Assembly: GCA_963422385.1 (NCBI GenBank)
Contig: OY729432.1
Location: 1,109,666 to 1,173,665 of the forward strand
DNA: 64,000 bases
Source of the DNA: Candidatus Binatia bacterium
Lineage (GTDB): Bacteria > Desulfobacterota > Binatia > UBA9968 > JAJDTQ01
Reading direction: 5' to 3'
Positions 15,570-60,071 of the stretch are shown piece after piece. How positions within the stretch are numbered: position 1 is the first letter of the stretch; every line of letters starts with the position of its first letter. The translations under genes were made by a program, and so were the position numbers. The notes beneath the pieces are model-generated. The model searched no databases and was not told the origin of the DNA. It saw only the letters and a list, made by a program, of their open reading frames with translations.

Positions 15570-15669
15570 CCGGGGCCGCGGGAGCTAGGGCGTCCTGCCC
15601 TCGCTCCCCAGGACGTGTTTCGCTGCCATTCGTTTGCTCGGACAGGCTCCCAGTCGGGCAGGAGACGCC

Positions 15670-34271: not shown

Positions 34272-35951
34272 TCACTCTCCCCGCGCCACCCGATAGGGCA
34301 GGACGGTCACAGCGGCCCGGGTCAGGTCGAGTTTCGCCAGCGCGTCGAGAAAGACGCTGTCCGGGGCAGCGGGCTTTCCCGTCTCCTTCCTCGGATCGTA
34401 GCAGAACGGCGGGGCCAGCTTCTCGAAATCCAGACGCTTGCCCGCAGCGAGCACGATGATCGCCTCGTGACTGACCGTGCTGCCGCGCAACGGCGCCGAT
34501 GTGACGGGACAGCGACGGTCCCTTGGCAGCGTCACATGCCCGTCCTTCGGGATGGTCGGGTCCGGCTCAATGAAGTGCGGGTAAAGGCGAATCACCTTGT
34601 TGTCTGCGCCCCAAGCGAACATCGCTACATAAACCATCTCCTTCGCCGACAGCTTGATGCGGATCTCCTCTCCCGCGCGCAGCGCATCCTTTTCGAGCCT
34701 GGCTTCCAATTCCGGCCGCGAGTCCGTACCGACCTTGACGACACGCGCGTCCAGTTCACCCTTCCAGCCCCCCATCCTTGTCCCGCCACGGCCCATGAAC
34801 TGTTCGTCCGCCGGTATGCCATGTTCGAGAGTCAAGCGCAGCATCTCCACCCCCTCTGCCTCGGAACGAATCTGGTCGATTCCCGGCACCTCGAGACCCA
34901 GCGCCTCTGCTACCACCCGCGCTCGGGCCAGGTTCCTCACCGCCCGCTTCGCGCTGTTCTGGCCGAGGGTGCTCGACACCGCGGCGCGTGCGGAAGCCCT
35001 GTAGCGTCTTGTGCCTGAATCCTGCTCGGTCAAGTGCGCCGGCAGCCACTCTTTTCTGATCGTGGCCTTATTCCTTGCTACCTCGCCGCCGCCGTCCCGC
35101 AACGTTGCGGACACGAAGACGGTCTCCGTTGTCCGTGTAACCTCGCCGCGCAACTCGTAGCTACCGCGTGGCGCCACGGCGCCACCGTCGCTACCTCCCG
35201 TGATGGCGGTCGGAAGACTGCGACGGCGCCCTTCAAGCCTCTTCTCGGCGACTCTTCTTATCTCCCACCCGATAGCCTCGGTAAGCTTGGTTCGTTGGCC
35301 TGTCCCCGCGTCGGCAAAGAATACCCTCGAAATCGGATTCGGCTCGGCCGCCTCCTTCGCAAGCTCAAGACCCAAGCGGGCCAGTGTGTACTCGTAGCGG
35401 AACCGCGCGTCCACGGGAAACACCGCCAGCGGGCCGGGCACGTCACTCTCGAGTTTGCTATTTCTGCGGACGGGAGCTGCCACGCAGCTAAGTGCTATGC
35501 CATGGTCTTCCAATTGGTCTTCCAATTTCTGGTTTTTCAATTTCCTGTCTTCGCAAGACACTACGATGTTGACACCCCGGGTTTTTAAGAACTCATGGAA
35601 GTCGCTCTTCTCATTCTCACTTTGCCAGCTTTCCCATATATCTTCTCTGCGGTCCCTCGCATCGAGGTTATACTTTCCTTTGGATTCGTCATACATGGCT
35701 CTAAAAATACGGTCGTAAAGATGGGCTGCCACACCGTCGGGAATAGCGGTCTTCGGAGGCCCGAAGGGGAGCAGGGCGATGCGCTCCTTGCGCTCCTCGT
35801 TCTTTGGCAATCTCCGGATCAACTCCTGCCCGAGGCAGGTTTCTCGACACGCCTCCCCGTCGCCGGTCTGCGCGACAGCCGCATCCGCCATCATGCCGCC
35901 CAGCAAGACCGCCGCCAACCCGACGTGGCGCCATCGCCTGTGCATATCCAC
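34272..35951 (-). CDS. Secreted hypothetical protein with a C-terminal DUF4384-like domain
   Basis: A signal peptide, and a C-terminal segment (MVYVAMFAWGADNKVIRLYPH) typical of the DUF4384 that co-occurs with caspase-domain proteins. Confidence 0.55.
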   Translation of the reverse strand: MDMHRRWRHVGLAAVLLGGMMADAAVAQTGDGEACRETCLGQELIRRLPKNEERKERIALLPFGPPKTAIPDGVAAHLYDRIFRAMYDESKGKYNLDARDRREDIWESWQSENEKSDFHEFLKTRGVNIVVSCEDRKLKNQKLEDQLEDHGIALSCVAAPVRRNSKLESDVPGPLAVFPVDARFRYEYTLARLGLELAKEAAEPNPISRVFFADAGTGQRTKLTEAIGWEIRRVAEKRLEGRRRSLPTAITGGSDGGAVAPRGSYELRGEVTRTTETVFVSATLRDGGGEVARNKATIRKEWLPAHLTEQDSGTRRYRASARAAVSSTLGQNSAKRAVRNLARARVVAEALGLEVPGIDQIRSEAEGVEMLRLTLEHGIPADEQFMGRGGTRMGGWKGELDARVVKVGTDSRPELEARLEKDALRAGEEIRIKLSAKEMVYVAMFAWGADNKVIRLYPHFIEPDPTIPKDGHVTLPRDRRCPVTSAPLRGSTVSHEAIIVLAAGKRLDFEKLAPPFCYDPRKETGKPAAPDSVFLDALAKLDLTRAAVTVLPYRVARGE

Positions 35952-35960
35952 TTCCTCCCG

Positions 35961-36566
35961 TTACTGGATGGCTTGCAGGCCAGTGACGCCCTTGCCCTGC
36001 TCGCCCGCATCGGGCTGGCCCATCTTCCCGGCGTCAGTACCATCTGCATCGGCCTTGCCCGCGTGCCCGTACTCGGGACTGAAGACTACGATCTCGACAC
36101 GCCGGTGCCGCGGAGAATCGGGAGAGACTCCTTCAAGCAGGTGCTCCTCGCCACGGCCCTCGTGGCGAAACCGCTCATGGTCGAGGGCGAAATGTTCGAC
36201 TAGATAGGCCACCGCTGCCACTGCACGCTTTTCGGATAAGGCAAGGTTGTACGCAGCCGGGCCCGATGCGTCGGTATGACCGTAAACACCGACATCGAAC
36301 TCTCGCAACGCCTCGCCCGAGAGAGCCGCGCCAAGCTCGTCGAGTTGCCGCCGCGCCGCAACGGTGAGATCGGCCGAGCCGCGGGCGAAGGGCACCACCA
36401 GATCCACCGAACGCGCCGTTTCACCGGTAACGGGAATGAGCCGTCCGGTCAATTTGGCGCGGCCCAACGGTTCCGAAACGGCGACGGACGGATTCACCGA
36501 CGCTACCGCCAGGCACAGCCCTACGGCCCATAGGAGCCCCTTTGGCCGTCTTTGTTCGTCCGTTCT
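35961..36566 (-). CDS. OmpA-family protein (OmpA C-terminal peptidoglycan-binding domain)
   Basis: GHTDASGPAAYNLALSEKRAVAAVAYLVE...RRVEIVV. The start is probably internal to the listed ORF, after a signal peptide. Confidence 0.7.
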   Translation of the reverse strand, partial: RTDEQRRPKGLLWAVGLCLAVASVNPSVAVSEPLGRAKLTGRLIPVTGETARSVDLVVPFARGSADLTVAARRQLDELGAALSGEALREFDVGVYGHTDASGPAAYNLALSEKRAVAAVAYLVEHFALDHERFRHEGRGEEHLLEGVSPDSPRHRRVEIVVFSPEYGHAGKADADGTDAGKMGQPDAGEQGKGVTGLQAIQ

Positions 36567-36790
36567 CACGCCGCGTGTCGTCCTACCCACAGCATCGAAA
36601 GTGATACGTCGAACACACTCGAGAAACCACAAGACATCCAAGGTCGTCCCATGCCGACGTTACGTCGAGCGTCTGTCCTGCTTGCGCCGCCATCGCCCCT
36701 GAAAGATCTCCAGGGAAACGACTTGGCTGAAGCCAGCGGCAGGATTTCCATGGTTTTATCCGGACAAATGCGGGGGTAGCGCACCTCCGC

Positions 36791-36829
36791 CCGCACCCCT
36801 CCCCCGCGGCAGCGGGGCAGGAGGGGTGC
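36791..36829. terminator. GC-rich hairpin (10-bp perfect stem gcacccctcc/ggaggggtgc) downstream of the DGR TR on the minus-strand transcript
   Basis: A perfect inverted repeat seen in the sequence; its position suggests a terminator or a TR-RNA structural element. Confidence 0.3.
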
Positions 36830-36842
36830 GAAGCCATGTTCA

Positions 36843-38117
36843 TCATGACCGCCCCTGGACGCTCTCGGGCGCGCCCGGCGGCCCCGTGGGGACGCCGGCT
36901 CTGGCTGCGGAGCGTACGGAGGATACGGAACCCGGAGTTGTTGTTCCGGTTTCCGGCAGTGTTCCTGTTACGGTTCGCGGACCGGAGGTTCCTCGGTTTG
37001 TTGTTCCAGGAACCACCGCGCAATACGCGCCGGCAGGGGGACGGTCAGGCTCTCGAGATGGGTCGAACCACCCGTCCCGAAAGATCGCTTGGCGCAAGCG
37101 CCAAGTATTCGCATGTCTGGCATGGGCAACCCAAGCGCCGACCCGTTGCTCGATGTCTGCGCGCGTTACGCGGCCTTCGCGCCAGCGTGCGCGGAGCCCC
37201 CGCAATCGGTTACGGAAGCGGCGCACGTTTGCTTCAGGCAGACGGCGGCTTCCGTCGGGCAGGAGGACGAACCCCAGAAACTCCGCTGGCTCCTTCGTCT
37301 CCATGATCCGAGTCTTGTTCGGATGAAGACGCAGGCGACGGCCCTCCAGGAACCGGGCGATCCGGCGGCGCCAATCTTCGAGACACTCAGGGTCATCATG
37401 AAACAGTGCGAAGTCGTCCACGTAACGCACATAGCCCTTGGCCCTCAGGACTTCCTTGCAGAAGTGGTCCAGTCCATCCAGGTAGAGATTGGCGAAGAAC
37501 TGGCTGGTCAGATTGCCGATGGGCAGGCCGCGTCGGCGCTCGAACGGGGTGAACAGGTCATCGTCCGGATAGTACAGGAGCACCGGCTCCTGTGGATTGG
37601 AGCCATCGACGATGCGGTCGGCCAGCGCCAGCGTGCGGGGGCAGGCGATGCGCCGTCGCAGGTCGCGCTTCAGAATCTTGTGGTCGATGGCCGGGAAGTA
37701 GCGGTAAACATCACAACGCAACACGTGGCGAAAACGGTCGCGAAACCGCTCGTAACGGGCGACGGCCCGGTGTGTCCCCTTGGCCTTGCGGTTGGCGTAG
37801 CTGTCATGGACGAAACCCCGCTCGAAGAGCGGCTCGCATACGGCGCAGAAGGCGTGATGCACCACCCGGTCGCGGAAGGGCGCGGCAGAAACAACCCGGT
37901 GTTTCGGGTCGAAGATGGCGATGGTCTTGTAACGGCCCGGACGGTAGCTCCCGTTTCGGAGTTCCCGCTCCAGCCGTAGCACATCTTTCTCCTGGTTGGC
38001 GAGGAAGGCCGCCACACCCGGCTTGGCCCGCTTGCCCGTGGCCGCGCGCAAGGCCGCTGCCCGCAAGGCGGGGAACGACGTGATGGCGTCAAACAGATCG
38101 TGTGCTTTCTCTGGCAT
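36843..38117 (-). CDS. Diversity-generating retroelement reverse transcriptase. The 3' end of the ORF overlaps the TR, so the true C-terminus is uncertain.
   Basis: YVRYVDDFALF (YxDD) and the DGR-specific IGNLTSQFFANLYL motif (SQ rather than the SP of group II intron RTs). It aligns motif by motif with Bordetella bRT (FRDRVVHHAF..., AWVAHARHANTW). The start is at MPEKAHDLF; the listed ORF carries a spurious N-terminal extension. Confidence 0.85.
   Translation of the reverse strand: MPEKAHDLFDAITSFPALRAAALRAATGKRAKPGVAAFLANQEKDVLRLERELRNGSYRPGRYKTIAIFDPKHRVVSAAPFRDRVVHHAFCAVCEPLFERGFVHDSYANRKAKGTHRAVARYERFRDRFRHVLRCDVYRYFPAIDHKILKRDLRRRIACPRTLALADRIVDGSNPQEPVLLYYPDDDLFTPFERRRGLPIGNLTSQFFANLYLDGLDHFCKEVLRAKGYVRYVDDFALFHDDPECLEDWRRRIARFLEGRRLRLHPNKTRIMETKEPAEFLGFVLLPDGSRRLPEANVRRFRNRLRGLRARWREGRVTRADIEQRVGAWVAHARHANTWRLRQAIFRDGWFDPSREPDRPPAGAYCAVVPGTTNRGTSGPRTVTGTLPETGTTTPGSVSSVRSAARAGVPTGPPGAPESVQGRS
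36911..37030 (-). repeat. DGR template repeat (TR), 120 bp
   Basis: Aligns without gaps to 38641-38760. There are 22 mismatches, and 19 of them have T on the plus strand in the TR, which is A on the coding strand. In the target frame the TR reads RGGSWNNKPRNLRSANRNRNTAGNRNNNSGFRILRT and is rich in AAC (Asn) codons. Confidence 0.85.
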
Positions 38118-38190
38118 GATGCACCCTGCTCCAGGCTCCGATCTTGCGCCCGGTCTCGTCCAGACATCGCGCCGCGTGCTCGTAGCGCCG

Positions 38191-38508
38191 CTAGTCCAGA
38201 CAACGCAAGTCCAGGGCCAGCCGAAAGAGGAACCGCAGCTTCTCGATACCCAGGTTGGACCGGGCCAAGTGATTGCTGCGCTGCCGGGTGTAGGTCGCCT
38301 CGACAAGAGATTCCAGCAAATCCAGCGCAGTCCCCTGAATGCGGTCGCCCAGCAGGAATTTCTGGCTACGGGGGAACCGTTCGACCGTCGGCACCAGCCA
38401 GAGGAGGAAGCGATAGTGAGCCTCCAGCGCGGGACCCGTGTTGCGTGCGCCATCCCTGACGGTTTCTTCCGACGGCGCGCCTCCCTCGGTGGTCGCGTCA
38501 CTTCTCAC
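38191..38508 (-). CDS. Avd-like accessory variability determinant (four-helix-bundle protein)
   Basis: A small, mostly helical ORF between the target and the RT. YRFLLWLVPTVERFPRSQKFLLGDRIQGTALDLLESLVEA fits the Avd/four-helix-bundle family pattern. Confidence 0.6.
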   Translation of the reverse strand: MRSDATTEGGAPSEETVRDGARNTGPALEAHYRFLLWLVPTVERFPRSQKFLLGDRIQGTALDLLESLVEATYTRQRSNHLARSNLGIEKLRFLFRLALDLRCLD

Positions 38509-38587
38509 GAGTCATGCCCGCTTCTCTCTATTCACCGGGGTCTGTTCTTCGGCTTTTCGCCGCACCGATTCACGCCAAATCGTCCAA

Positions 38588-38603
38588 GGGGGCTTCGCCC
38601 CCT
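38588..38603 (-). promoter_or_regulatory. GC hairpin (gggggc-ttcg-gccccc) about 38 nt downstream of the VR 3' end; a DGR homing-associated stem-loop candidate
   Basis: A 6-bp GC stem with a 4-nt loop placed where DGR VR-flanking hairpins and cruciforms occur. Confidence 0.4.
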
Positions 38604-38630
38604 GGACCCCCGAGGTAAAGAGGTAACGAT

Positions 38631-40772
38631 TCATGGGGTGAGCGTCCGGAGGATACGGAACCCGGAGTAGTGGCTCCGGATAAAGGCAGGGAGCCAGCTA
38701 CGGAACGCGGACCGGAGGATCCTCGGCTCGAGGCCCCAGGAACCACCGCGCAATACGCGCTCGCCACAATTACCTGTGTCCCACGCACTCCCATCATTCG
38801 GCGCTCCCTCATAGTCCCCGTTCTCCCCGTTCCAACAATCCTCCACCCACTCCCATACGTTCCCGTGCACATCGTGCAATCCAAAACCATTCACCGCGAA
38901 AATCCCCACCGGTGTCGTCTCCTTTCTATACCGACCTTTGCGGCCTCTACCATAGGTGTAGTTCCCATCGTAATTTGCCTCATTCGTCGAGATCGTCTCT
39001 CCAAAATGAAACGGCCCCATCGTCCCCGCCCTCGCCGCGTACTCCCACTCCGACTCCGATAGTAAACGATATCTCTTTCCCGTCTTCCGCGACAGCCAGG
39101 CAACATACGCCCTGGCGTCTTCCCAGCTTACCTTTATGACCGGGCGATCCCCACGTCCCCAACCCATATCACTCGGCCGATGCCCACCGCACCCGCCGGA
39201 GGAAACGCACGCGTCCCACTCCTCGAACGTCACCTCGTATTTCCCCACTGCCAACGGTTTCGGTATCCTCACCCGATGAACCGGCCCCTCCCTATCTAAC
39301 CGGCCCTCTTCTTGAGACGGCGAGCCCATCATGAACGACCCCGCTGGAATCACCACCAGCTCCGGACACTCCTCGCAGTCACGAAACACCCTCCCCACAG
39401 CTATTCGCTCCCGCTCCTTCGCCTTCGCACTCAGAATACGCGCCTCGCCCGCGTGACGCCCCCCCGGATGCGACGACAGGTACGCTTCATAGGACGCCAC
39501 TGTGCCCGATGACTTCGCCCGCGCAAACGCCGCATCATCCACCCGCTCCCGCTCCGCCCGCCCCGCAGCCATCAGTGTGTCCGCCTGCTCACGGGTGAGA
39601 TACCCCGTCTCCCGCAGCCCCTTGGCCTTCTGCCATGCACCGACCGCAGCACGGGTCTTGCCGACAAACAGCCCGTCCGCTGGTCCCGCATCGAATCGAA
39701 GGGAACTCAGACCGCGCTGCACCAGCACCTTCGCTCCACGGTCCAGACCCAGCCCCTTCTCCACCCCCGCATGATCCGTCGGCGTCGGAGACCGTGAAAC
39801 GACTTCCCTCTCCTCTCTCCTGACCTCCCCACCAAGAACCGGTCGCTTCGGAAAACCCTCGCCGGCGGCCGCTGACAGCACGACCTTCGGTGTTCCTGCC
39901 AACAGGTTGGCCGTCTGCTCGGTCCTGCGCGCAAGCCACGCCGCCGGCGTCATGTAGTCGTCGAGATATTGCTTCGCCTCCACAGCCGTCACCCTGCCGT
40001 CGCCGTCCGCATCACCCTTGCCATAAAGCGCGTCCAACAGATGATGTGTGAACAGGCCGTGCTGCGCCTGCTCATCCCAGTTGGCGAGTTGCTTCGAACC
40101 CGCTGCGGTGAGCACCGTCACCTGCTCCGCGATCGCTTCCGGCAACGCCGCGGCAATGATCACGGGTGACGCGCCCTGAATCAGAAAACCTCCATAGCTG
40201 TTGCCGGTAAAACACGCATCCAAAAATACCTGAACGGACTTCGCGCGGCGCCTGCGGTCGGCCTTGCTCAACTCGTCCAGCCTCTTGTACAGGAGTTCCA
40301 GCGGGTAGCCCTCGTTCCGGGCCTCCCGCGGCGGCACATCGACAGGCAGGAGATAACCCATCCCGTCCTTCAGTCCGGGCACGCCGTGGCCGGAATAATA
40401 GACGACCACGGCGGAGCGCCCCTTGGGGTCGAGCTTCGCCAAGATATCGCTCATCGGGGCGTCGCGACTTCCGAAGACGTTGAGCATTTCCCGCCGTTTC
40501 GCGTTCTTCAGGGAGATGATCTTCGTTGGATCGAAGCCCATGACGTCGATGACGTAGCGCTTGAACGCCTCGGCGTCGCGATCGGCATAGTCGACGTCAG
40601 GAACGCCCCTGTGTGGATAATGCTTGTTGCCGATGATCACCGCCACGCCGTGCGGGTTCCGTACCTCCGCCAAGGCCAACGAGCCGACGACGAGACTCCA
40701 CAGGGCAATGGCCAGGACGGCACGGAAACCCATGGCCCACGCGAAGCGACACGGCAGAATCCTGAATTTCAT
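38631..40772 (-). CDS. DGR target protein: secreted caspase-like (C14) peptidase domain, a peptidoglycan-binding-like segment, and a C-terminal FGE-sulfatase/C-type-lectin-fold domain carrying the VR
   Basis: A signal peptide; the caspase His/Cys dyad context (YYSGHGV, FLDACFTG); and a C-terminal FGE/CLec fold (WGRGDRPVIKVSWEDARAYVAWL...GGSW), which is the usual scaffold of DGR variable proteins. Confidence 0.85.
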   Translation of the reverse strand: MKFRILPCRFAWAMGFRAVLAIALWSLVVGSLALAEVRNPHGVAVIIGNKHYPHRGVPDVDYADRDAEAFKRYVIDVMGFDPTKIISLKNAKRREMLNVFGSRDAPMSDILAKLDPKGRSAVVVYYSGHGVPGLKDGMGYLLPVDVPPREARNEGYPLELLYKRLDELSKADRRRRAKSVQVFLDACFTGNSYGGFLIQGASPVIIAAALPEAIAEQVTVLTAAGSKQLANWDEQAQHGLFTHHLLDALYGKGDADGDGRVTAVEAKQYLDDYMTPAAWLARRTEQTANLLAGTPKVVLSAAAGEGFPKRPVLGGEVRREEREVVSRSPTPTDHAGVEKGLGLDRGAKVLVQRGLSSLRFDAGPADGLFVGKTRAAVGAWQKAKGLRETGYLTREQADTLMAAGRAERERVDDAAFARAKSSGTVASYEAYLSSHPGGRHAGEARILSAKAKERERIAVGRVFRDCEECPELVVIPAGSFMMGSPSQEEGRLDREGPVHRVRIPKPLAVGKYEVTFEEWDACVSSGGCGGHRPSDMGWGRGDRPVIKVSWEDARAYVAWLSRKTGKRYRLLSESEWEYAARAGTMGPFHFGETISTNEANYDGNYTYGRGRKGRYRKETTPVGIFAVNGFGLHDVHGNVWEWVEDCWNGENGDYEGAPNDGSAWDTGNCGERVLRGGSWGLEPRILRSAFRSWLPAFIRSHYSGFRILRTLTP
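38641..38760 (-). repeat. DGR variable repeat (VR) at the 3' end of the target gene, ending 7 nt before its stop codon
   Basis: Counterpart of the TR. It encodes GGSWGLEPRILRSAFRSWLPAFIRSHYSGFRILRT, and every TR Asn (AAC) position is replaced by varied residues. Confidence 0.85.
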
Positions 40773-41025
40773 TCATCTCTCCTTGACGGCGGTCCGGCAG
40801 GGAAAAGTATAACCGCCCGTTCTCACCGCGCAAGCGCAATCCGGTGGCGAAGAACGGAAACGCCAAGCTCTTGCAGGCCCGCGAGCGCCGGGGCGGCACC
40901 ATCGGCCGCGAGCAGCCGCGCCACGTCCCCCGACGGGCTCGGAGCCGACACAATGGTCAGTTGCCACGACCAGGAATCGTGAAGATAAAGCGGCAGGTCC
41001 TGCAACAACCGCACCGGCGCCTGTG

Positions 41026-41620
41026 TCAGTGTGCCGGAGACCAGCCGCCGCGAGGGCGGCGGCTGCGGACCAGAGCGTGGTGAAGATCTTGCAAGGAGCG
41101 ATGCGGCGCAGCCTGTCGCAGCACGGCGTAAGTCCCTGCTACGTGAGGAGCCGCCATGGACGTTCCAGCGTCTTCCTTGAACGGCGCCCGTTCGCTTTCG
41201 GACCGTGGCACTGCTGAACGGATGGCAACACCCGGCGCAAGCACGTCCAGAATCGGCGCGCTGTTCGAGAACTTCGCCACTCGGGAACCCTTATCGATGG
41301 CTCCGACGCTGATGACGCCCGTGACGCAGGCCGGGCGCGATATTCCCCGCTTGTTCGATTCGTTCCCTGCTGCTGCCACCACAGCGACGTTTTGCCACGC
41401 AAGCCATCTCGTGGCCATGTCGAAGAACCGGTCCCGGCACGGAGTCGCGCGATGGGGCAGTCCCCCCAGACTCATGTTGACCGAAGCGATATCGATGCGC
41501 CGGGTCCAGGCCAACCCTATCAGCCAGTCGAGCGCTCCAAGGATGTTCGAGTTGCGCGCTCCACCCTCGCGGTTAAAGACGTTGATCGCTATCAGACCGG
41601 CCTCGGGTGCGACACCGGCG
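41026..41620 (-). pseudogene. Subtilisin-like (S8) serine protease, C-terminal fragment only
   Basis: GTSMAAPHVAG Ser motif and the GVAPEAGLIAINVF region are present. The frame is closed upstream by a stop, and the Asp and His catalytic motifs are missing. Confidence 0.55.
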
Positions 41621-41819
41621 ATTCAATTCTGACACTTTCTCTACACTCGCGTCCAACCTTCATGAATGGAAAGATCGGACCGGTATTCGTCCAAGCGCCG
41701 CCGCTATGGCTTCTATGGTCCGGCTCGGCAAGGCGTGGTAGAGTCCTCGTGACCTGTACCGTGCCGAACGCCGGCACGGGATGCAGGCCGCCAGATCAGG
41801 CACAAGGGGGGATGTTGCC

Positions 41820-43305: not shown

Positions 43306-44190
43306 CTACGGGGCCAGTAACTCCGCCAGCAGACGAAATTCGTGCTCCCGGGGCGATCTTGTCCGCCAGACCAGACCGATGGTGCGGCTGGGCTCGGGCT
43401 TTCGGAAGGGCCGGATGATGATGGGCGAGGGTGTGCGGCATTCCACCTCGAGAGCGATCCGCGGCAGCAGGGTGATGCCGATGCCCCCCGCCACCATCTG
43501 CACCAGCGTGTTCAGGCTGCCGGCGCGGAAGTCCCCCACCTCGCTGGCGCCGCCGGTCTGACACACCTCAAGGACCTGGTCCCGCAGGCAGTGGCCGTCG
43601 TCCAGCAGCAGCACCTGCTCTCCGGCGAGATCGGCCTCGGTCACTCCCCTGCGCGCGGAGAACCGATGGTCCCCGGGCACCGCGACCACGAAGGGGTCCG
43701 ACACCAGCGGCAACGTGATCACGTCGCCCAGGCTCGCCTCCAGGGCCACCAGCAGCAGGTCCAGCTTGCCTTCCGCCAACAGCGCCAGGAGCCGGTGGGT
43801 AAAGTCCTCGTGCAGCAGGATCCGGAGTTCCGGATACCGCTAGCGGATGGCCGGCAGCGCCCTGGGCAGCAGGTAGGGCGCCACGGTGGGGATGACCCCC
43901 AGCCGCAGCGTTGCCGAGAGCGGCCGGGTCAGGCTGCGAGCCGTGTCCACGAAATCCCCTGTCCGGGTAAGGATGTTCCGGGCAAGGGGCAGCAGCGTCT
44001 CCCCCTCGGGCGTGAGCAGCACCTTGCGCCGGCTACGCTCGAAGAGCTGCACATCGAGCATGCGCTCCAGGTCCTTGAGCTGGGCGCTCAGTCCGGGCTG
44101 GGTGACGAAACAGGCCTCGGCCGCGCCCCGGAAGCTCAAGCGCTCGGCCACGGCCACGAAGTATTCAAGCTGCCGTAGCGAGACATTCAT
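43306..44190 (-). pseudogene. oxyR: OxyR-type LysR-family regulator interrupted by an in-frame TAG at 43840-43842
   Basis: N-terminal HTH (43843-44190) and a C-terminal effector domain with LLLDDGHCLRDQ (43306-43839) lie in the same frame on either side of a single amber codon: ...LPRALPAIR*RYPELRILLHEDFTH... The gene is divergent from catalase. Confidence 0.7.
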
Positions 44191-44295: not shown

Positions 44296-45738
44296 ATGTC
44301 CCGGAAACGACGCCCCGTGATGACCACCAGCGCCGGCGCGCCGGTGGCCGACAACCAGAACGCCCTCACCGCGGGAGAACGCGGGCCAATCCTGCTGCAG
44401 GACTACCATCTCATCGAGAAGCTCGCGCACCAAAACCGCGAGCGCATTCCCGAGCGGGTGGTGCACGCCAAAGGCTGGGGGGCGTACGGGACCTTCACGG
44501 TCACCCACGACGTCTCGCGTTACACCTGGGCCAGATGCCTCCAGCCCGGCGCCAAATGCGACGTGCTGGTCCGGTTCTCCACCGTGGCCGGCGAGCTCGG
44601 CGCGGCGGATGCCGAGCGCGACGTGCGCGGCTTCGCGGTGAAGTTCTATACGGAGGAAGGCAACTGGGATCTGGTGGGGAACAACACGCCCGTGTTCTTC
44701 ATCCGTGACCCCTACAAGTTTCCGGACTTCATCCGCACCCAGAAACGGCATCCGAAGACGCACATGAGGAGCCCCGTGGCCATGTGGGATTTCTGGTCGC
44801 AGTCGCCGGAGTCGCTGCACCAGATCACCATCCTGATGTCGGACCGCGGCTGCCCCACGGCGCCCATGTACATGAACGGCTACGGCTCCCACACCTTCAG
44901 CTTCATCAACGGGGACGACGAGCGCTTCTGGGTCAAGTTCCACTTCAAGACCCGGCAAGGGCACCGGCACTACACCAACGCGGAAAGCGCCGAGGTCATC
45001 GGCCGGACCCGGGAGTCCTACCAGGAGGCTCTGTTCGGCGCCATCGAGGGGGGCGAGTACCCGAAGTGGGATCTCAAGGTGCAGATCATGCCGGAAGAAG
45101 AGGCGGAAAGGACGCCCTACAACCCTTTCGACCTGACCAAGGTCTGGCCCCACGGCGACTACCCGTTGATTGACGTGGGCGTGATGGAGCTGCACCGCAA
45201 CCCGGAGAACTACTTCGCCGAGGTGGAACAGGCAGCCTTCTCCCCCTCGAACATCGTACCGGGCATCGGCTTCTCACCGGACAAGGTGCTGCAGGCGCGC
45301 ATCTTCTCCTACGCCGACGCGCACCGTTACCGCCTGGGCACCCACTACGAGGCGCTGCCGGTGAATGCGCCCAAGTGCCCGGTCCATCACTATCACAAGG
45401 ACGGGCCCATGCGATTCTTCGAGCCCCGGCACGGCAATGTTGACGCCTACTACGAACCCAACAGCTTCGACGGTCCGGCGCAGGACGAGAGCTACGCGGA
45501 GCCGCCGCTCAAGATATCGGGCGACGCCTCCCGCTACGACCACCAGGCGGGAAACGACGACTACACCCAGGCGGGAAACCTGTTCCGGTTGTTCGACGAC
45601 GGCCAGAAGCAGCGTCTGTTCAGCAACATCGCCGAGGCCATGCATGGAGTCGGGCAGAAGATCGTCGAGAAACAGCTCGAGCACTTCGCCAAGGCCGACC
45701 CGGCCTATGCGGAAGGCGTGCGGAACGCCTTGGGGTGA
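44296..45738 (+). CDS. katA: Monofunctional (clade 3) catalase
   Basis: Catalase core motifs ([21 protein letters not shown], proximal Tyr region). Confidence 0.9.
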
Positions 45739-49609: not shown

Positions 49610-50809
49610 ATGACCATTGACCTACAGACATTACAAACTGCTGTTGCCGGCACGGCCGCAGCGTTCCGGTGCGTGACCACCTATCAGCCGGCAGGAGGTC
49701 CCGGCGACAAGGTATTTCCCCCTACCTACAAAGGCGGGAAATACGCCACCGAGGAGCGAGTCGATCCCGAAACCGGCGAACGCCGACCCTGTGTTCTCCT
49801 GGATTCCGTGCAGTCGCAGGCCAACCGCATGGAACTGGCGTTGCTGGAAGCGCATCGCGCCAGCCAGGTGAGCCTTCCCTTGCTGGTCGCGCGCTTCAAT
49901 CAGGAGGAACTGCTCAAGAAGTTCACCGTGACCAGCCTTGAGGCGCCTCACCGCGTAGCGGATGCCCTTTTCCGAGACAGCCTCCTCGATGGCATGATCT
50001 TTCGCCGGTCAGAAAAGGGGCGAACACTTGACACCGCCGACGTGCGGAACGCCACCGGTCTGTTTGGCCTGTGTCCGACCGCCCTGGTATTCGGGCTGTG
50101 GGACTCGACCGGACCTCGTGGCGGTTCGGGTTGCAAGTTCCAGCGGGCGCTGGTGTCTGAAATAGTTGGGTATGATGCCGTGACGGGGAAGAAAACGTCC
50201 GGCCGCATTGACCCTGCGGAGATCATGCGTGATGCAGCTACGCTCTACGAGCGCAAGTCTGAAGGCGACAACGTGCCGCGCTGGACCTTGAAGGAAGGGG
50301 ACGGCAAGAGGAAGCTCAAGACGGGAAGGCCATCGGCAGCGAATCACGGAAACGTTGTACCCACCATCGCGGATGGCGGATTCACCCTGTCGGGAGCCCG
50401 ACAGACGACTACCTTGTCGCTCGCAGTCTTGCGACGCCTTCGTTTTCCGCTCGATGGAGCCGCCACTTCGAACGTCGCTACCGACCTTGCCGCACGCACC
50501 GCTCTGGCTGCCCTGGGTCTCGCCGCCGGGAGCCTGGCGCGCGTCGATACCGACCTTCGCTCTCGCTGCCAACTGTTCGCGGAGCAAACGCCCGCATGGG
50601 AGTTGCTCGACCACCCCGGTGAACCGCCACGGCAATTCGAACACGGTCCCGAAGACGCGCTCGAACTGTTGGATGAGGCGATCAAGGTGGCCAAAGATGC
50701 CGGCCTGCCGTGGGAGGGTGAGGTCGAATTGACTCCGTCGCCCGACTTGGTCGAACTGGTTCGGCGTAGCCAGGAAATGGCAAGCGCTTCGGAGGCGGAG
50801 CAAGGCTGA
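49610..50809 (+). CDS. cas7: Type I-G (formerly I-U) Cas7, Csb1/GSU0053 family
   Basis: YQPAGGPGDKVFPPTYKGGKYATEER and VLLDSVQSQANRMELAL are recalled signatures of the Csb1 family; the G-rich loop TGPRGGSGCKFQRAL; the gene lies directly upstream of csb2. Confidence 0.65.
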   Translation: MTIDLQTLQTAVAGTAAAFRCVTTYQPAGGPGDKVFPPTYKGGKYATEERVDPETGERRPCVLLDSVQSQANRMELALLEAHRASQVSLPLLVARFNQEELLKKFTVTSLEAPHRVADALFRDSLLDGMIFRRSEKGRTLDTADVRNATGLFGLCPTALVFGLWDSTGPRGGSGCKFQRALVSEIVGYDAVTGKKTSGRIDPAEIMRDAATLYERKSEGDNVPRWTLKEGDGKRKLKTGRPSAANHGNVVPTIADGGFTLSGARQTTTLSLAVLRRLRFPLDGAATSNVATDLAARTALAALGLAAGSLARVDTDLRSRCQLFAEQTPAWELLDHPGEPPRQFEHGPEDALELLDEAIKVAKDAGLPWEGEVELTPSPDLVELVRRSQEMASASEAEQG

Positions 50810-53169
50810 TGTTCGCTCTTGGCATCCGCTACCTGAACGGGTGGTCGATGGCCGCTGCGGACGGAGCGAGAAAGGAGAAGGCCGAATGGCCGCCGCATCC
50901 GGATCGGGTGTTCATGGCCTTGGCCGCGGCCTGGTTCGAGACCGATGCAGACGGCTCCGAAGGGGAAGCCTTGCGCTGGCTCGAAACCTTGCCGCCCCCT
51001 GAAATTGCCGCGTCGGATGCCGAGAGTCGCACCCCTGTCGTCAGCTACGTACCCGTCAACGACCCGAGCCTCGGTCGCAAGATGCCCGCAGGTCAAGACT
51101 TGGACAAGCTCAAGGATGCCGGACTGGGCCAACTGCCGGAGCATCGGTCGCCCCAGCCCCGCGGGTTTCCCGTGGCCATCCCTCGGGATCCGACGGTACA
51201 CCTGATTTGGCCGGAGGCACAGGTGGGCGTGCATCGCGAGGCCCTGGACCGGCTGGCCGCGAAGGTCACCCATGTGGGGCATTCCGCATCCTTCGTGCAA
51301 GCGTGGCTCGAAACCAGTCCATCGCCGCCCGCGTGGGTCCCGGGGACCGGGGTCGCGCGTCAGCGCCTGCGCGTGACGAGCCCTGGTCGCTTGAGGACTC
51401 TGGAAGGGCGCATGAACCGCGAAGCGTGGATCGCCTACCATGACCTTCGCCACGAAATCGAGCAGGCCGAGGCGGACCTCAAGGCGATGAAGCGCCCGCC
51501 AAGGGCGCCTTGGGAGGCATTCCCGGACGTGATTTTGCTGGCCGGCGAAACCCGAACCAGGCGGCATCCCGAGTACGCTGACGCAAAAGCCACCGACGAT
51601 GCTGTGGCCGCGGCCAACCTCGTCAACAGCCTGGTTGACGAAGCGGGGATTGCTGCGGTGCGGACACTGATCGCCACAGTCAGTGAAAGTGGTGAGCCGA
51701 TCCTGGTCAGCGCACATGCATTCGAGCGGCAGGGGCTCAATGCCATTCCCGCTGCCTTGACGAGATTGCTGAGCGAACGACTCCGCATCCCGCGCGAGAC
51801 TACCGTTGTGCAGACGAACGTTGTCTCCCACACGGGTGCAGACGGTTATGGTCGCCTTGCGCGACAAGCCTGTTTCGACGGCCGCATCGAAGCAGGTCGA
51901 GAGTATCTTATGGTGGACGATTTCGTTGGCCAAGGCGGGACCTTGGCCAATCTGCGCGGCTGGATGGAAAAACAAGGCGGTCAGGTCGTCGGAGCCGTTG
52001 CCCTGACCGGCAAATCGTACTCCGCCAAGTTGAACCCTTCAAAGGAGCAACTCCATGAACTCGGACAAAAGCACGGATCAGACTTTGAAAAGTGGTGGCA
52101 GGCGCACTTCGGCCACGCCTTCGATTGCCTTACTCAATCGGAAGCTCGGTACCTCGCCCGCTCCCCGGATGTTGACACCATCCGAAATCGCCTTGCTGCG
52201 GCAAAGCAAGGTGGAAGTGGATCGAGTAACAGGCGAAGTCCTGGCGAGCAAAGACAATACATAAAGGAAATGAAGACACGTCTAAGAGACACCTTCCCCG
52301 ATGGTGAACCCGTAAGCTTGCGCCCTGTACCGGGCCGCTGGCAGGGGTACACAGAGGCATCGAAAGATGGTGACCCTGAAGCACCGGGCCCGGTTTTCGC
52401 CCCGCGGCTCATTGTCCTGGACCTCAAGGGCAGGCGGGTGTCTTTGCCGGCCACGCTCAAGCTCACCGCGGCCCTGCGTGGGCTGTTGATGCGAGAGTGT
52501 GCCGACCAGCCCCCACCCGAGTGGTTCAGCGGCCATCGCACGGACGGCAAGCCAAGCGCCAACCCGCATCTCGCCCTGATACCGCTTCCCTTTGTCGGCG
52601 CCGAGCATGCAGACGGTCGCGTCATGGGTTTGGGTCTCGTACTGCCTGCGGATTTGGACTCATTGGCGGCCGGCCATTGTCTCGAACCGTTCTTGCACGA
52701 GTCGGCTACCGGCTTGCCACGCGAACATCCGTTGTTCGACGGCCAGTGGTTCGAGTGCGCTATCGAGTTGGAAACCCGCGAACGACCGCCGAGGAACCTC
52801 GACCCGAGAACCTGGACGCGGAGATCCTGCGTTTGGGCAAGCGTGACTCCGATCGTCCTGAACCGACACTTCGACGGCAAGGACAAGTGGGCGAAGGCCG
52901 CCGACAGCGTGAAAGACGCCTGCCGGCATATCGGCCTGCCGCGCCCCCGAGAAGTGCTGCTCCACCCGATCTCGCTGGTTGAAGGCGCACCGCACGCCAG
53001 GGACTACCCGCAACTGACCCGCAAGAACGCCGGTGGCGCGCGCAGCCACAGTCACGCGGCGATCATTTTCGACGAACCCGTGCGCGGGCCGGTAATTGTC
53101 GGGGCCGGGCGTTTCCGGGGGTATGGGTTGTGCCGGCCGATGGACGGGGGTGGCCAAGACCGTGGTTGA
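50809..53169 (+). CDS. Type I-G Cas5-Cas6 fusion (Csb2/GSU0054 family) with an inserted phosphoribosyltransferase-like domain
   Basis: N-terminal EWPPHPDRVFMALAAAW...VSYVPVNDP (Cas5 region of Csb2). C-terminal GAGRFRGYGLCRP glycine-rich loop (Cas6-like). At 786 aa it is far longer than the ~500 aa usual for Csb2, and the middle segment carries YLMVDDFVGQGGTL, a canonical type-I PRTase PRPP-binding motif. Confidence 0.65.
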   Translation: MFALGIRYLNGWSMAAADGARKEKAEWPPHPDRVFMALAAAWFETDADGSEGEALRWLETLPPPEIAASDAESRTPVVSYVPVNDPSLGRKMPAGQDLDKLKDAGLGQLPEHRSPQPRGFPVAIPRDPTVHLIWPEAQVGVHREALDRLAAKVTHVGHSASFVQAWLETSPSPPAWVPGTGVARQRLRVTSPGRLRTLEGRMNREAWIAYHDLRHEIEQAEADLKAMKRPPRAPWEAFPDVILLAGETRTRRHPEYADAKATDDAVAAANLVNSLVDEAGIAAVRTLIATVSESGEPILVSAHAFERQGLNAIPAALTRLLSERLRIPRETTVVQTNVVSHTGADGYGRLARQACFDGRIEAGREYLMVDDFVGQGGTLANLRGWMEKQGGQVVGAVALTGKSYSAKLNPSKEQLHELGQKHGSDFEKWWQAHFGHAFDCLTQSEARYLARSPDVDTIRNRLAAAKQGGSGSSNRRSPGEQRQYIKEMKTRLRDTFPDGEPVSLRPVPGRWQGYTEASKDGDPEAPGPVFAPRLIVLDLKGRRVSLPATLKLTAALRGLLMRECADQPPPEWFSGHRTDGKPSANPHLALIPLPFVGAEHADGRVMGLGLVLPADLDSLAAGHCLEPFLHESATGLPREHPLFDGQWFECAIELETRERPPRNLDPRTWTRRSCVWASVTPIVLNRHFDGKDKWAKAADSVKDACRHIGLPRPREVLLHPISLVEGAPHARDYPQLTRKNAGGARSHSHAAIIFDEPVRGPVIVGAGRFRGYGLCRPMDGGGQDRG

Positions 53170-54934
53170 ATCGAACGGCACGGCACGGGAACACGTGCTA
53201 CTGACAGTGCTCGGCACGAACCCGAAGAAGGCATGCTATCGCTTCAAGGACAGGCAGGCGGAGGCCATCCTCGCCCCGATCGCCCTGTATGACTTGTCGC
53301 CGGAAGCAGACCGGCCTGACCGGGTATTGGCACTCTGCACACCAGAGGCAAAGCAGAACAGTTTGCCGCTCCTTGAAGATGGGCTATGCGGTCGGTGCGT
53401 TGTGAAACCGGTTGACATTCCTGCCGGCAACTCTCAGGCGGACGTCCATACTTTCTTGGCTACGGTTGCCGCCGCCATACCGGAGAGAGCCGATCTCACC
53501 GTAGACGTCACCCACGGGTTCCGGCATTTCTCGTTCCTCACCTACATCGCCGTTCTCTACGTATCGGCGCTTCGCGGCATACGGGTACGCGGCGCCTACT
53601 ACGGTATGTTGAATCACAATGAGGCGAGTCCGTTTCTCGATCTGCGTCCGCTTCTGGAACTGCCCCGCTGGCTTCACGCGCTGCAGGTGTTGAACGATAC
53701 GGGGAGCGCCGTGTCCATTGCCAGTATCCTCGATGAGGGTTCCCAAGGACGGGGACCGCGGCTAATCGCAAGGCGTCTATCGCAGTGTCTATCGCAGTGT
53801 CTATCGCAGTTCTCGGAAGCGTACTTGTCCGGTCTCCCGCTCGAACTCGGCCGGCACGCGGCTGAGTTCACGCAGCAGTCGATCAAGCCGTTGAAGAGAC
53901 TGCTCCAGAACGATCACGCGTTACCCCTCGGGGGCGAGTTGGCCGATCAAATAGCAGAGTTCTTCAAGCCGCTGGCCCTGGGATCACAGGCTTCAGGGAG
54001 CGGGTGGAAGCAAAAGGTCGCGCTCTCGAAGGAAGAACTGGAACGTCAGGCCGCAGTTATCGACAACCTGCTGCGCCATGGAAGCGTCACAGCCGCATTG
54101 GGTCTCATGAACGAGTGGACCGTGTCGTGGGTAGTCCGGGTCCGCGACGGGCGCAACAGCGAATGGCTCGACTATCACAATGTCCGTCGCGGCGCCGCGA
54201 GCCTTCTCGGCGCCATGAGGGCCATCGGTAACGACCCTGAACTGCATTGTCTCTTGACGGATGAGCAGCGTTCGCTCGGAGTGTTCTGGGGAGAACTGTG
54301 TGACCTTCGCAACGGATACCACCACCACGGCATGCGCCCGCAGGTTCTGGTCGGCGACGCGCAAACCGGGAAAAAACTTCAGGGTGTGCGGGAATACTGG
54401 ACGACAACGCTCCGCTCATGCCCCGAGAATTTCGGGTTCTCGCTCGGCGATACGTCTGGAGGCCGGGTTCTGGTCAGTCCCATCGGAAAGCGCCCTGGCG
54501 TGCTGTACAGTGCGTTGCGCGCCTGCAGGGACGAAAACGGTAACAGCAGGTTGTCGCGATGCCTCGTCATCTGCTCGCCCGAAACCCGAGGAAAGATCGA
54601 CGAGGCGGTCGAGAACGCGGGGTACAAAGGGCATGTTGAGCCGCTTGTAATCAAAGACGCTTTCGGCGGCGGCTCCGGGGAAATCAGGAGCGTGGTGGCG
54701 AGGGGGCGAAAACATCTCATCGGTGCCGAGGCCGTCTTCGTGAACGTCACCGGCGGCACGACGCTCATGGGCCTTGCTGCCGAAGACCTTGCCAACGCGG
54801 GACGTGAACTTGCCTGCCCGGTGCGCCGGTTCGGCCTGATCGACCGCCGGCCGCCGAGAGAGCAGGAGGCCGACCCCTACCGGGCCGGCGAACCATTCTG
54901 GCTGGACCCGGGAGAAGACAAGAATGCCGACTGA
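53162..54934 (+). CDS. csx1: Csx1/Csm6-family CARF-HEPN protein (DxTHG family)
   Basis: N-terminal CARF strand LLTVLGTN and DVTHGFRHFS (DxTHG signature); C-terminal HEPN-like LCDLRNGYHHHG (R-x4-H). A GTG start at 53162 or 53195 is more likely than the listed ATG 53096, which overlaps csb2. Confidence 0.75.
   Translation: MVESNGTAREHVLLTVLGTNPKKACYRFKDRQAEAILAPIALYDLSPEADRPDRVLALCTPEAKQNSLPLLEDGLCGRCVVKPVDIPAGNSQADVHTFLATVAAAIPERADLTVDVTHGFRHFSFLTYIAVLYVSALRGIRVRGAYYGMLNHNEASPFLDLRPLLELPRWLHALQVLNDTGSAVSIASILDEGSQGRGPRLIARRLSQCLSQCLSQFSEAYLSGLPLELGRHAAEFTQQSIKPLKRLLQNDHALPLGGELADQIAEFFKPLALGSQASGSGWKQKVALSKEELERQAAVIDNLLRHGSVTAALGLMNEWTVSWVVRVRDGRNSEWLDYHNVRRGAASLLGAMRAIGNDPELHCLLTDEQRSLGVFWGELCDLRNGYHHHGMRPQVLVGDAQTGKKLQGVREYWTTTLRSCPENFGFSLGDTSGGRVLVSPIGKRPGVLYSALRACRDENGNSRLSRCLVICSPETRGKIDEAVENAGYKGHVEPLVIKDAFGGGSGEIRSVVARGRKHLIGAEAVFVNVTGGTTLMGLAAEDLANAGRELACPVRRFGLIDRRPPREQEADPYRAGEPFWLDPGEDKNAD
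53766..53801 (+). repeat. In-frame 12-bp x3 tandem repeat inside csx1, encoding (LSQC)x3
   Basis: gtctatcgcagt repeated three times. Confidence 0.5.
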
Positions 54935-59241: not shown

Positions 59242-60071
59242 GAACAGCGATGCTCGGTCTCTTGGCCGAGACGCCCATCCATCCCGGCTCCGGGCGCGGC
59301 ATGGGTGTGGTGGACCTGCCCGTGGCGCGAGAAGCTGCCACCGACTACCCCGTGCTCGTCGGATCGAGCTTGAAGGGCGCATTGCGGGACAAGACGGGCA
59401 AGAATGCGGACGAAAATGCCGCGAACGAGAGGTTCGGGAAACCGGAGCAGGCGGGCGACCTGCTCGTCTCGGACGCGCGTCTGTTGTTGCTGCCCGTGCG
59501 TAGTCTGACCGGCGCGTACCGCTGGGCCACATGCCCGCATCTCGTCGAACGGTACGTTCGCGATTGCGCCCGGGCGGGCAGGCGAACGGAATCTCTGGCA
59601 CCTCCCGATGTGAAGGAGGGGGAAGTTCTGACGTCCGGTTCAGGCGATCTGTTCCTCGAAGAAAGACAATTCCCTATCTGTGGCGAACCTGCATCCGAGT
59701 TGGCGCGCGCCATCGCGCCGTTGCTGCTCCACCAGGAAACACGGGAACGGCTGCATGGACAGATTGCCGTGCTGTGTGACGACGACTTCGCCTGGTTTGT
59801 CCGCTATGGCCTTTCCATTCAGGCGCGCAACCATCTGGAAGACGAGACCAAAAAGAGCAAGAACCTGTGGTACGAGGAAACTCTGCCTCCCGATACGCTG
59901 CTTTACTCTCTCGTCGCGGGCCGAAACGACGCGGCTCTCGACACCCTGGATTCCCTCTTCCCCGACAGCGATCCCTACCTGCAAGCCGGCGGCAACGAGA
60001 CCGTGGGCCAGGGCTGGTTCGCTGTCAGGGTCCTTAAGCCCGTGGCACCGGATGCGGAGGAATCGCAATGA
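59238..60071 (+). CDS. cmr4: Type III-B Cmr4 (Cas7 backbone subunit)
   Basis: ETPIHPGSGRGMGVVDLPVAREAATDYPVLVGSSLKGALR is the canonical Cmr4 start. Confidence 0.9.
   Translation: MRTAMLGLLAETPIHPGSGRGMGVVDLPVAREAATDYPVLVGSSLKGALRDKTGKNADENAANERFGKPEQAGDLLVSDARLLLLPVRSLTGAYRWATCPHLVERYVRDCARAGRRTESLAPPDVKEGEVLTSGSGDLFLEERQFPICGEPASELARAIAPLLLHQETRERLHGQIAVLCDDDFAWFVRYGLSIQARNHLEDETKKSKNLWYEETLPPDTLLYSLVAGRNDAALDTLDSLFPDSDPYLQAGGNETVGQGWFAVRVLKPVAPDAEESQ

Follow-up and report, generated by a model that had tools for sequence, protein, structure and literature searches.

A diversity-generating retroelement with an interrupted avd reading frame and a caspase–C-type lectin target protein in a Candidatus Binatia genome

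We analyzed a stretch of 64,000 nucleotides (hereafter the window) from the genome of a Candidatus Binatia bacterium (assembly GCA_963422385.1, contig OY729432.1, positions 1,109,666 to 1,173,665), which harbors an element that is almost certainly a diversity-generating retroelement (DGR). An earlier reading of the sequence (the original prediction) had described it as a complete DGR targeting a secreted protein with a caspase and a C-type lectin (CLec) domain. The gene order on the minus strand is as stated there, namely target gene, variable region (VR), avd, reverse transcriptase (RT) gene, and template repeat (TR), with the TR overlapping the 3' end of the RT open reading frame (ORF). All coordinates refer to the window, and the evidence used for each feature is given in brackets.

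38631..40772, minus strand: target gene, 713 amino acids (Pfam scan, PDB relatives, sequence reading)
38640..38760, minus strand: VR (repeat search, base comparison, codon analysis)
38582..38625, minus strand: cis element following the VR, consisting of the pyrimidine motif TACCTCTTTACCTC at 38625-38612 and a GC hairpin, GTCCAGGGGGC-GAA-GCCCCCTTGGAC, at 38607-38582 (sequence, DNA fold, relatives)
38090..38508, minus strand: avd reading frame, start codon uncertain, interrupted by TAG at 38193-38191 (NCBIfam, Pfam, relatives)
36843..38117, minus strand: RT ORF, 424 amino acids, protein P0001 (start codon ATG at 38117; Pfam/NCBIfam, PDB relatives)
37038..37047, minus strand: 5' strand of a long-range RNA duplex bracketing the TR, TGACCGTCCC, inside the 3' coding region of the RT gene (RNAalifold and pair counts)
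36910..37030, minus strand: TR (repeat search, base comparison, codon analysis)
36792..36909, minus strand: structured spacer RNA 3' of the TR (consensus fold, covariation, single-sequence fold)

The TR and the VR form a single gapless direct repeat of 121 nt with 82% identity, which was recovered by a repeat search. Compared base by base on the coding strand, which is the minus strand, the two copies differ at 22 positions, 19 of which are an A in the TR that is replaced by C, G, or T in the VR. With 30 A among the 121 nt of the TR, the hypergeometric probability of at least 19 of 22 mismatches falling on A is 8.8e-12. The adenine-specific mismatches claimed in the original prediction were thus borne out upon realignment, and the coordinates, counts, and peptide strings given there for the repeat were correct on re-comparison. 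In the frame of the target gene, the TR contains ten AAC codons and one AAA codon and reads RGGSWNNKPRNLRSANRNRNTAGNRNNNSGFRILRT; the corresponding VR peptide is RGGSWGLEPRILRSAFRSWLPAFIRSHYSGFRILRT. The adenines of the TR are distributed over the first, second, and third codon positions in a ratio of 16/11/3, and the codon changes within the repeat comprise 14 non-synonymous and one synonymous exchange. The VR makes up the last ~40 codons of the target gene (amino acids 672-711 of 713) and ends at 38640, 6 nt before the stop codon TGA (38633-38631). No additional copy of the TR, the VR, or the RT gene was found in the 64-kb window.

Three mismatches do not involve adenine: GG to TT at TR positions 36954/36953 and T to G at TR position 36916. 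The latter lies at the 5' edge of the duplex formed by the TR 3' end and the spacer (described below). Across the family, this position is T or C in the TR (C in most relatives) and G in every VR that was aligned. It is part of an adenine-poor block common to the 3' ends of TR and VR, CTCCGGGTTCCGTATCCTCCG(G/T)ACGCTC, which resembles an initiation of mutagenic homing (IMH) site. The mismatch at 36916 would correspond to an IMH/IMH*-like difference, located immediately beyond the portion of the TR that is copied. The GGA to TTT difference arose on the VR side, as the TR codon is GGN in most relatives, and it is not a product of adenine mutagenesis. A few non-adenine TR/VR differences are also present in relatives with an intact avd.

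In the target protein, the Pfam scan identified a Peptidase_C14 domain (amino acids 42-252), a PG_binding_1 domain (amino acids 350-399), and a full-length FGE-sulfatase/CLec domain (amino acids 469-709). The PG_binding_1 domain had been overlooked in the original prediction. Peptidase_C14 (PF00656) was matched with an E-value of 3e-12, and the caspase model NF047832 scored 67.7 bits, under its cut-off of 140. Both residues of the caspase dyad can be read from the translation (His in YYSGHG and Cys in DACFTG). With the Peptidase_C14 domain and the His-Cys dyad, the target appears to be a caspase-like protein, whose protease activity is putative. The N-terminus, MKFRILPCRFAWAMGFRAVLAIALWSLVVGSLALA/EV, resembles a Sec signal peptide when read by eye, and the same applies to homologues in the related locus L002. 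The protein is therefore predicted to be located in the periplasm, where the PG_binding_1 domain may tether it to peptidoglycan. Its description as a secreted caspase–CLec protein is supported by the Peptidase_C14 and FGE-sulfatase domains, with the signal peptide recognized by eye only.

The FGE-sulfatase domain (E 1e-55) is closest by sequence to PvdO among the solved structures (5hha, E 2e-61), with further matches to formylglycine-generating enzymes and to TvpA, a variable protein of a DGR (2y3c, E 7.6e-10). In NCBIfam, the PvdO equivalog reached 241 bits against a cut-off of 500, and EgtB, GldK, and SenA were far under their cut-offs. An assignment of the CLec domain to any of these four enzymes was rejected because of these scores, and since the values for PvdO, EgtB, and GldK fall so far below the NCBIfam cut-offs, the domain is most plausibly a fold relative used as a binding scaffold. 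The VR lies inside this domain, and the homology to TvpA agrees with the prediction that the gene of a CLec-fold target ends in the VR. A protein identical to the target (P0123, 100%) has the same precomputed Pfam domains. The architecture of C14, PG_binding_1, and FGE domains gave 1118 matches at E <= 1e-30 in the protein database, the nearest match to the window target being only 58-65% identical. The target protein is a singleton cluster and thus provides no allelic series of VRs.

The reading frame of the RT gene is intact, and its product equals P0001, which is encoded on a contig of 3,949,999 bp. Its conserved part covers 38117-37041 (359 amino acids), and the C-terminal 65 codons run across the TR and the spacer RNA. 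Both motifs named as DGR-specific in the original prediction, IGNLTSQ and YVDDF, are present, the former fitting the pattern [I/L]GxxxSQ of DGR RTs. The best PDB match was 8ub7_A (E 7e-41), which was identified by its sequence as 100% identical to the BPP-1 brt product over the stretch compared; the matches to RTs of group II introns (3e-19) and retron-type RTs (2e-9) were weaker. NCBIfam, which contains no model of DGR RTs, yielded only sub-threshold matches to group II and defence RTs, the best of them to a group II intron RT/maturase (126.8 bits, cut-off 300). Judged from these comparisons, the RT appears to belong to the DGR clade, with bRT as its nearest relative of solved structure. Neither of the two outcomes that would have spoken against the original prediction, mismatches without a bias to TR adenines or an RT grouping with group II intron or retron RTs, was thus observed. 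A longer ORF of 552 amino acids (36843-38501) was rejected as the RT gene, as its first 128 codons correspond to avd in a wrong frame. We also rejected the C-terminal tail over the TR as a functional protein segment, because the relatives differ in its length but retain the RNA pairing; the RT frame of the relatives stops at various points, earlier or later than in the window. The overlap of ORF and TR is real, and the conservation in this section is explained at the RNA level.

The original prediction had placed an Avd-like gene between target and RT. As sequenced (38191-38508), its product matches the Avd model NF033474 (DivGenRetAVD) with 69.5 bits over profile positions 4-80 of 104, the cut-off being 80. 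The in-frame TAG at 38193-38191 cuts off model positions 81-104. When this codon is treated as a sense codon, the match extends over positions 4-103 and reaches 101.4 bits, and the score of bAvd (PF22296) increases to 60.8 bits. The stretch of ~26 residues behind the TAG, RRYEHAARCLDETGRKIGAWSRVHHA, represents the conserved Avd C-terminus with the last helix, and the stop is thus predicted to delete the last helix of the four-helix bundle. If read through, the frame ends with TGA at 38092-38090 and overlaps the RT start by 28 nt, the same as in the intact relative L042. With matches of both NF033474 and PF22296, an Avd gene appears to be present, the cut-off being exceeded only with the TAG read through. 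The assignment as a DGR Avd equivalog therefore stands, whereas the frame is broken. The description of the element as complete did not hold, since the premature amber codon is absent from 34/34 relatives having that segment. All of them carry a sense codon at the equivalent site, mostly CGG/CGC (Arg), but also Leu (TTG), Tyr (TAT), Gln (CAA), and several others.

TAG is an ordinary stop codon in the window, where it terminates 16 of the 50 ORFs selected by the GC content at third codon positions (GC3); a genome-wide reassignment of TAG was rejected on these grounds. A tRNA search detected no tRNA genes, suppressor or other, in the window. Selenocysteine synthase (SelA) and the elongation factor SelB are encoded at 14166-17580 on the plus strand, and the host therefore recodes UGA at some sites, which has no bearing on TAG codons. 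Another single in-frame TAG (43842-43840), ~5.6 kb from that of avd, was observed in the otherwise intact gene of a LysR/OxyR-like regulator (43306-44190, minus strand), which is oriented divergently from a catalase gene (44296-45738); the sequence around it reads …LPRALPAIR*RYPELRILLHED…. An unspecific search for in-frame stops with coding-like GC3 on both sides produced too much noise, as antisense frames of real genes pass it. The stops in avd and in the LysR gene are the only ones backed by protein homology.

Downstream of the VR, the pyrimidine motif TACCTCTTTACCTC is located between the target stop codon and a GC hairpin of the sequence GTCCA-GGGGGC-GAA-GCCCCC-(T)-TGGAC. The hairpin described in the original prediction at 38588-38603 is real, but it is longer and spans 38607-38582. 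The cis element is kept in 14/16 relatives, in which changes in the stem preserve the pairing, and nearly all relatives have the pyrimidine motif. The cis elements of a DGR target site, that is, the GC-rich, IMH-like 3' end shared with the TR and the hairpin downstream of the VR, are thus recognizable, their function being putative.

The RNA structure around the TR was derived as a consensus from two alignments of 16 and 21 relatives, and controls were obtained by sliding the pairing partners by 1-3 columns and by 500 shuffles. Four elements were found. Duplex (a) comprises 10 bp between TGACCGTCCC upstream of the TR (37047-37038) and GGGGCGGTCA downstream of it (36855-36846); six of the 10 pairs covary, and 98.6% of the alignment cells are paired. 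Duplex (b), 6 bp, connects the TR 3' end ACGCTC (36915-36910) with GAGCGT (36864-36859) and is nearly invariant. Stem (c) directly follows the TR (36898-36875) and consists of 10 bp with a tetraloop, and 7 of its pairs covary. Element (d) is a long terminal hairpin (~36830-36792). A conserved block following duplex (a), TCATGATGA, contains the TGA that ends the 424-amino-acid RT ORF. In the consensus of the TR/spacer RNA, 95-97% of the cells are paired, compared to 44-53% in the slid controls; for the 21-relative set, the values are 95% and 44-50%. Compensatory changes were counted for 17 and 27 pairs in the 16- and 21-relative alignments, respectively, versus 4-18 in the slid controls, and none of the 500 shuffles attained the observed values. 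Helices predicted inside the TR showed no covariation and were not counted. When the window RNA was folded as a single sequence (z = -3.0), (a), (c), and (d) appeared in the centroid and (b) in the minimum-energy structure. Rfam, applied at gathering thresholds over the whole window, gave no family covering the TR/spacer RNA.

In the DGR of BPP-1, the RNA elements comprise a template:primer duplex of TR and spacer (TR:Sp), a 'cPRT Stop' duplex that pairs sequences upstream with sequences downstream of the TR, and an Avd-binding stem-loop after the TR (bioRxiv 10.1101/2023.10.23.563531). Elements of this type were predicted in 207 of 278 Avd-containing DGRs (bioRxiv 10.1101/2023.10.23.563531). 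The predicted RNA of the window shows the same architecture of an upstream:downstream duplex, a TR 3':spacer duplex, and a stem-loop after the TR.

The surroundings of the element contain the following further features.

34272..36641, minus strand: neighboring genes encoding an OmpA-family protein (35961-36641) and a DUF4384 protein (34272-35951), in the low-GC3 island and shared with the related loci L042 and L045
41026..41514, minus strand: Peptidase_S8 gene remnant that matches only profile positions 114-273 of 288 and adjoins the target gene on its upstream side

The S8 remnant is flanked by out-of-frame pieces (41026-41632, minus strand), and an intact S8 gene is located near the DGR in L042. 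The block from 34272 to 41632, which includes the DUF4384 and OmpA-like genes, the DGR with its target, and the S8 remnant, has a GC3 of 0.67-0.74. Because this is lower than in the flanking genes (0.82-0.93), the data suggest that the ~7-kb block is a horizontally acquired island. The flanking genes are ordinary chromosomal ones and encode, among others, an amidohydrolase, an aldolase, a catalase, a biotin carboxylase, SelA/SelB, and a major facilitator superfamily transporter. OmpA-like and DUF4384 genes also flank the caspase–CLec genes of two related loci: L042 contains a DGR, and L045 has none within 7 kb. A module consisting of an OmpA-family gene, a caspase-(PG_binding/SH3)-FGE gene, and a gene for a DUF4384 protein of ~570 amino acids was seen to recur in L045 (112-11079), L042 (9381-16017), and the window (34272-40772), that is, with or without an adjacent DGR. 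This combination suggests an envelope-located system in which a protease would sense ligands. At 49.6-58.1 kb, the window also contains the CRISPR-associated genes Cas_GSU0053, Cas_GSU0054, and Cmr2/Cas10; the GC3 of this cluster with its neighbors (49610-60071, plus strand) is 0.69-0.73 and thus lower than in most of the window.

Relatives of the RT were found at 41 loci with 67-86% identity in a scan of one genome per species, mostly on complete chromosomes of metagenome-assembled genomes (MAGs) from about eight phyla. The genomes are labeled as Alphaproteobacteria, Gammaproteobacteria, Dehalococcoidia, Binatia, three orders of Acidobacteriota, Spirochaetia, Nitrospirales, Latescibacterota, and Longimicrobiales. 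This mix of phyla may be reminiscent of a community associated with sponges or other hosts. The protein database contains thousands more; the closest of these (P0002, 89%) belongs to the metagenome scaffolds L042 and L043 in ENA. The closest annotated relatives are RTs of cyanobacterial plasmids with 48-50% identity. Nearly all related loci contain the cassette of target gene with VR, avd, RT gene, and TR in this order, and their TR/VR differences are adenine-biased. The scaffold of the TR is the same across the lineage, and at some loci a single TR serves between two and four VRs, which are multiple or remote. Several chromosomes carry two copies of the lineage (L004/L011, L014/L016, L008/L017). 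Every target tested among the relatives has the same FGE-type domain at its end, preceded by exchangeable N-terminal modules (caspase, Ser/Thr kinase, ankyrin plus Sel1, SH3, PEGA, often PG_binding_1).

The Avd sequences within the lineage are 64-82% identical. Decayed avd genes, either frameshifted or truncated, were found in L012, L019, L024, L028, L031, L037, and L039, and the RT gene of L044 (12922-16109) is split by the insertion of a DDE transposase. A tandem duplication of 10 amino acids was noticed inside the avd gene of L010 (~5655-6005). A phage vector is not supported, because INPHARED contained nothing above 41% identity and an IMG/VR scan with the RT gave no relative. Neither the VR 3' flank nor a degenerate VR pattern derived from the TR was matched in two scans of metagenomes, and nothing relevant was found in the literature on DGRs in sponge symbionts.

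As the 19 adenine-specific differences show, diversification of the target has happened in the past. The mechanism is most likely of the BPP-1 type, adapted to the location of the TR behind the RT gene. A single transcript comprising avd, the RT gene, the TR, and the spacer would fold such that 37047-37038 pairs with 36855-36846 and the TR 3' end (36915-36910) with 36864-36859. A complex of RT and Avd would then prime itself on the folded TR/spacer RNA and copy the TR into cDNA, misincorporating nucleotides opposite adenines. Guided by the 3' sequence common to TR and VR and by the hairpin behind the VR, this cDNA would take the place of the 3'-terminal VR of the target gene. As a result, a caspase-like protease that is predicted to be periplasmic and tethered to peptidoglycan would vary in ~14 codons of its CLec surface. 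The priming site and chemistry, the direction of transfer, and the recognition of the target site are proposed on the basis of homology and conserved structure, and we infer the biological role of the target. The present activity of the element is doubtful: in BPP-1, cDNA synthesis depends on Avd (bioRxiv 10.1101/2023.10.23.563531), which lacks its last helix here. The element has probably been switched off recently, which would leave the VR frozen in its present state.

On balance, we favor the explanation of the locus as a chromosomal DGR of the BPP-1 type that lies on an acquired island, has diversified its target, and is now disabled, and we lean towards regarding the avd TAG as a real and very recent nonsense mutation. 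Several observations weigh against this explanation, chiefly against the loss of activity. The TAG is known from one assembly, and the sequence behind it is perfectly conserved, so that the mutation must be either very recent or an error. The TAG of the LysR gene occurs in the same C-TAG-CGG context, which hints at a systematic cause, either in base calling or as a mutational hotspot. The tetranucleotide CTAG was observed 14 times in the whole window compared to ~213 occurrences expected from the base composition, and two of the 14 are the in-frame stops of avd and the LysR gene. Since several relatives carry two copies per genome, a second DGR copy could supply Avd in trans. Finally, the two non-adenine differences in the GGA to TTT exchange do not follow from adenine mutagenesis. 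Possible, albeit rather unlikely, is a fully functional element, in which the TAG is a base-calling or assembly error or is suppressed, an Avd of ~135 amino acids is made, and mutagenic retrohoming continues. This would fit with the 26 residues after the TAG, which match the relatives as well as the rest of Avd does, with the read-through protein covering the full Avd model above the cut-off while the RT overlap of L042 is kept, and with the intact RT, TR, spacer RNA, VR 3' end, and hairpin; the second C-TAG-CGG stop in the LysR gene would suggest a systematic artefact, and the strong avoidance of CTAG in the window also speaks for such a cause. The use of TAG as the normal stop for about a third of the window ORFs and the lack of any tRNA gene, suppressor or other, in the window argue against this reading. 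Furthermore, decay of avd or the RT gene is frequent in the relatives, which makes a real nonsense mutation unremarkable, and an assembly would not typically contain substitution errors that produce one and the same codon at two sites.

A broken avd would also be compatible with an active cassette if another, intact DGR of this lineage, located at a different site in the genome, provided Avd and possibly RT in trans. The three chromosomes with two lineage copies each, the loci where one TR serves multiple or remote VRs, and the 64-82% identity of the Avd sequences would allow for such a complementation; we consider it improbable, given that the 64-kb window contains no second copy of TR, VR, or RT and that co-evolution may have matched the RNA elements of each copy to its own Avd. 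Even less probable is a role of the two amber codons as a conditional switch toggling the activity of the DGR and of the regulator in the population, which would have to operate either via read-through by a suppressor or context-dependent recoding or via a methylation-directed, reversible C/T hotspot at C-TAG-CGG. That the element is not a DGR at all, with the TR being a decayed partial duplicate of the target 3' end beside an unrelated RT of the group II intron or retron type, is scarcely conceivable. Such an interpretation could build on NCBIfam, where no DGR RT model exists and the best match is the group II intron RT/maturase (126.8 vs 300 bits). It is effectively refuted by the adenine bias (P = 9e-12), the closest affinity of the RT to BPP-1 bRT, the presence of a DGR-specific Avd, the recurrence of the four-part cassette with adenine-biased mismatches in more than 30 loci, and the covariation in the RNA around the TR; in addition, the TR has no reading-frame context of its own, and no group II intron RNA was found by Rfam. 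The preferred explanation thus remains that of a DGR with a diversified target and a recently interrupted avd.

The rarity implied by the original prediction was not confirmed. The same cassette is present in dozens of MAGs, the target architecture has more than 1000 homologues, and orthocaspase–CLec targets have been published (PMC7517822; related systems in PMC10907252). FGE/CLec domains as the commonest DGR targets, caspase–CLec targets, and the horizontal spread of DGRs are already known. The locus described here differs in the apparently periplasmic, peptidoglycan-tethered target, the OmpA/DUF4384 neighborhood, the position of the TR after the RT gene, and the broken avd. The tightly conserved cassette, with RTs of 67-89% identity in about eight phyla, offers a clean case for studying the movement and decay of DGR islands. 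The covariation-supported RNA in a layout with the TR after the RT gene extends the BPP-1 model to a different gene order. If the avd stop is real, its position beside otherwise intact parts captures a DGR in the course of being switched off once it had diversified its target; if not, it is a warning about assembly errors.

Among the known systems, the DGR of BPP-1 (mtd-VR / avd / TR / brt) shares with the window element the adenine-specific transfer from TR to VR, an RT of the same clade, Avd, a VR that forms the very 3' end of the gene for a CLec-fold target, and a hairpin behind the VR. The RNA features, that is, the bracketing duplex around the TR, the TR 3':spacer duplex, and the stem-loop just after the TR, are common to both as well. 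In contrast to the BPP-1 element, the window element is chromosomal and not located on a phage, and no phage or IMG/VR relative is closer than 41%. Its TR is positioned after the RT gene and inside the RT ORF, whereas that of BPP-1 lies between avd and brt. Because of this location, the upstream strand of the bracketing duplex is part of the RT coding sequence in the window element; in BPP-1, it belongs to the avd coding sequence. The predicted target is a multidomain periplasmic protease instead of a tail-fibre protein, and only the avd of the window carries a premature stop. The variable protein TvpA of Treponema denticola (2y3c, E 7.6e-10) likewise has a CLec fold of the FGE-sulfatase subtype whose VR is C-terminal, but it is a lipoprotein without protease or PG-binding domains. 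PvdO (5hha, E 2e-61) is closer to the window CLec domain by sequence than TvpA, although it is not a DGR target.

The variable proteins of cyanobacterial DGRs combine an N-terminal orthocaspase-like peptidase or a Ser/Thr kinase with a C-terminal CLec VR (Vallota-Eastman et al., 2020, PMC7517822). This architecture is shared by the window target, and relatives of the window element target kinase–CLec proteins, too. The host phyla differ, and the RT identity is ~50%. Furthermore, targets of the window type possess a signal peptide (recognized by eye) and a PG_binding_1 domain, suggesting a periplasmic location rather than cytoplasmic signaling. In Thiohalocapsa PB-PSB1 and related organisms, the proteins diversified by DGRs are putative antigen sensors that belong to conflict systems (Doré et al., 2024, PMC10907252). 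The STAND NTPase, MoxR, vWA, and adapter domains of these systems were not found beside the window element, whose neighbors are the OmpA-like and DUF4384 genes and the S8 remnant. DGRs of the Thiohalocapsa type occur in multiple copies per genome, have been transferred between distant phyla, and show transposon decay of redundant components (PMC10907252). All three traits recur in the lineage of the window element, with transposon decay in L044, and both groups share an FGE-type CLec VR that is fused or adjacent to peptidase effectors, including caspase-like ones.

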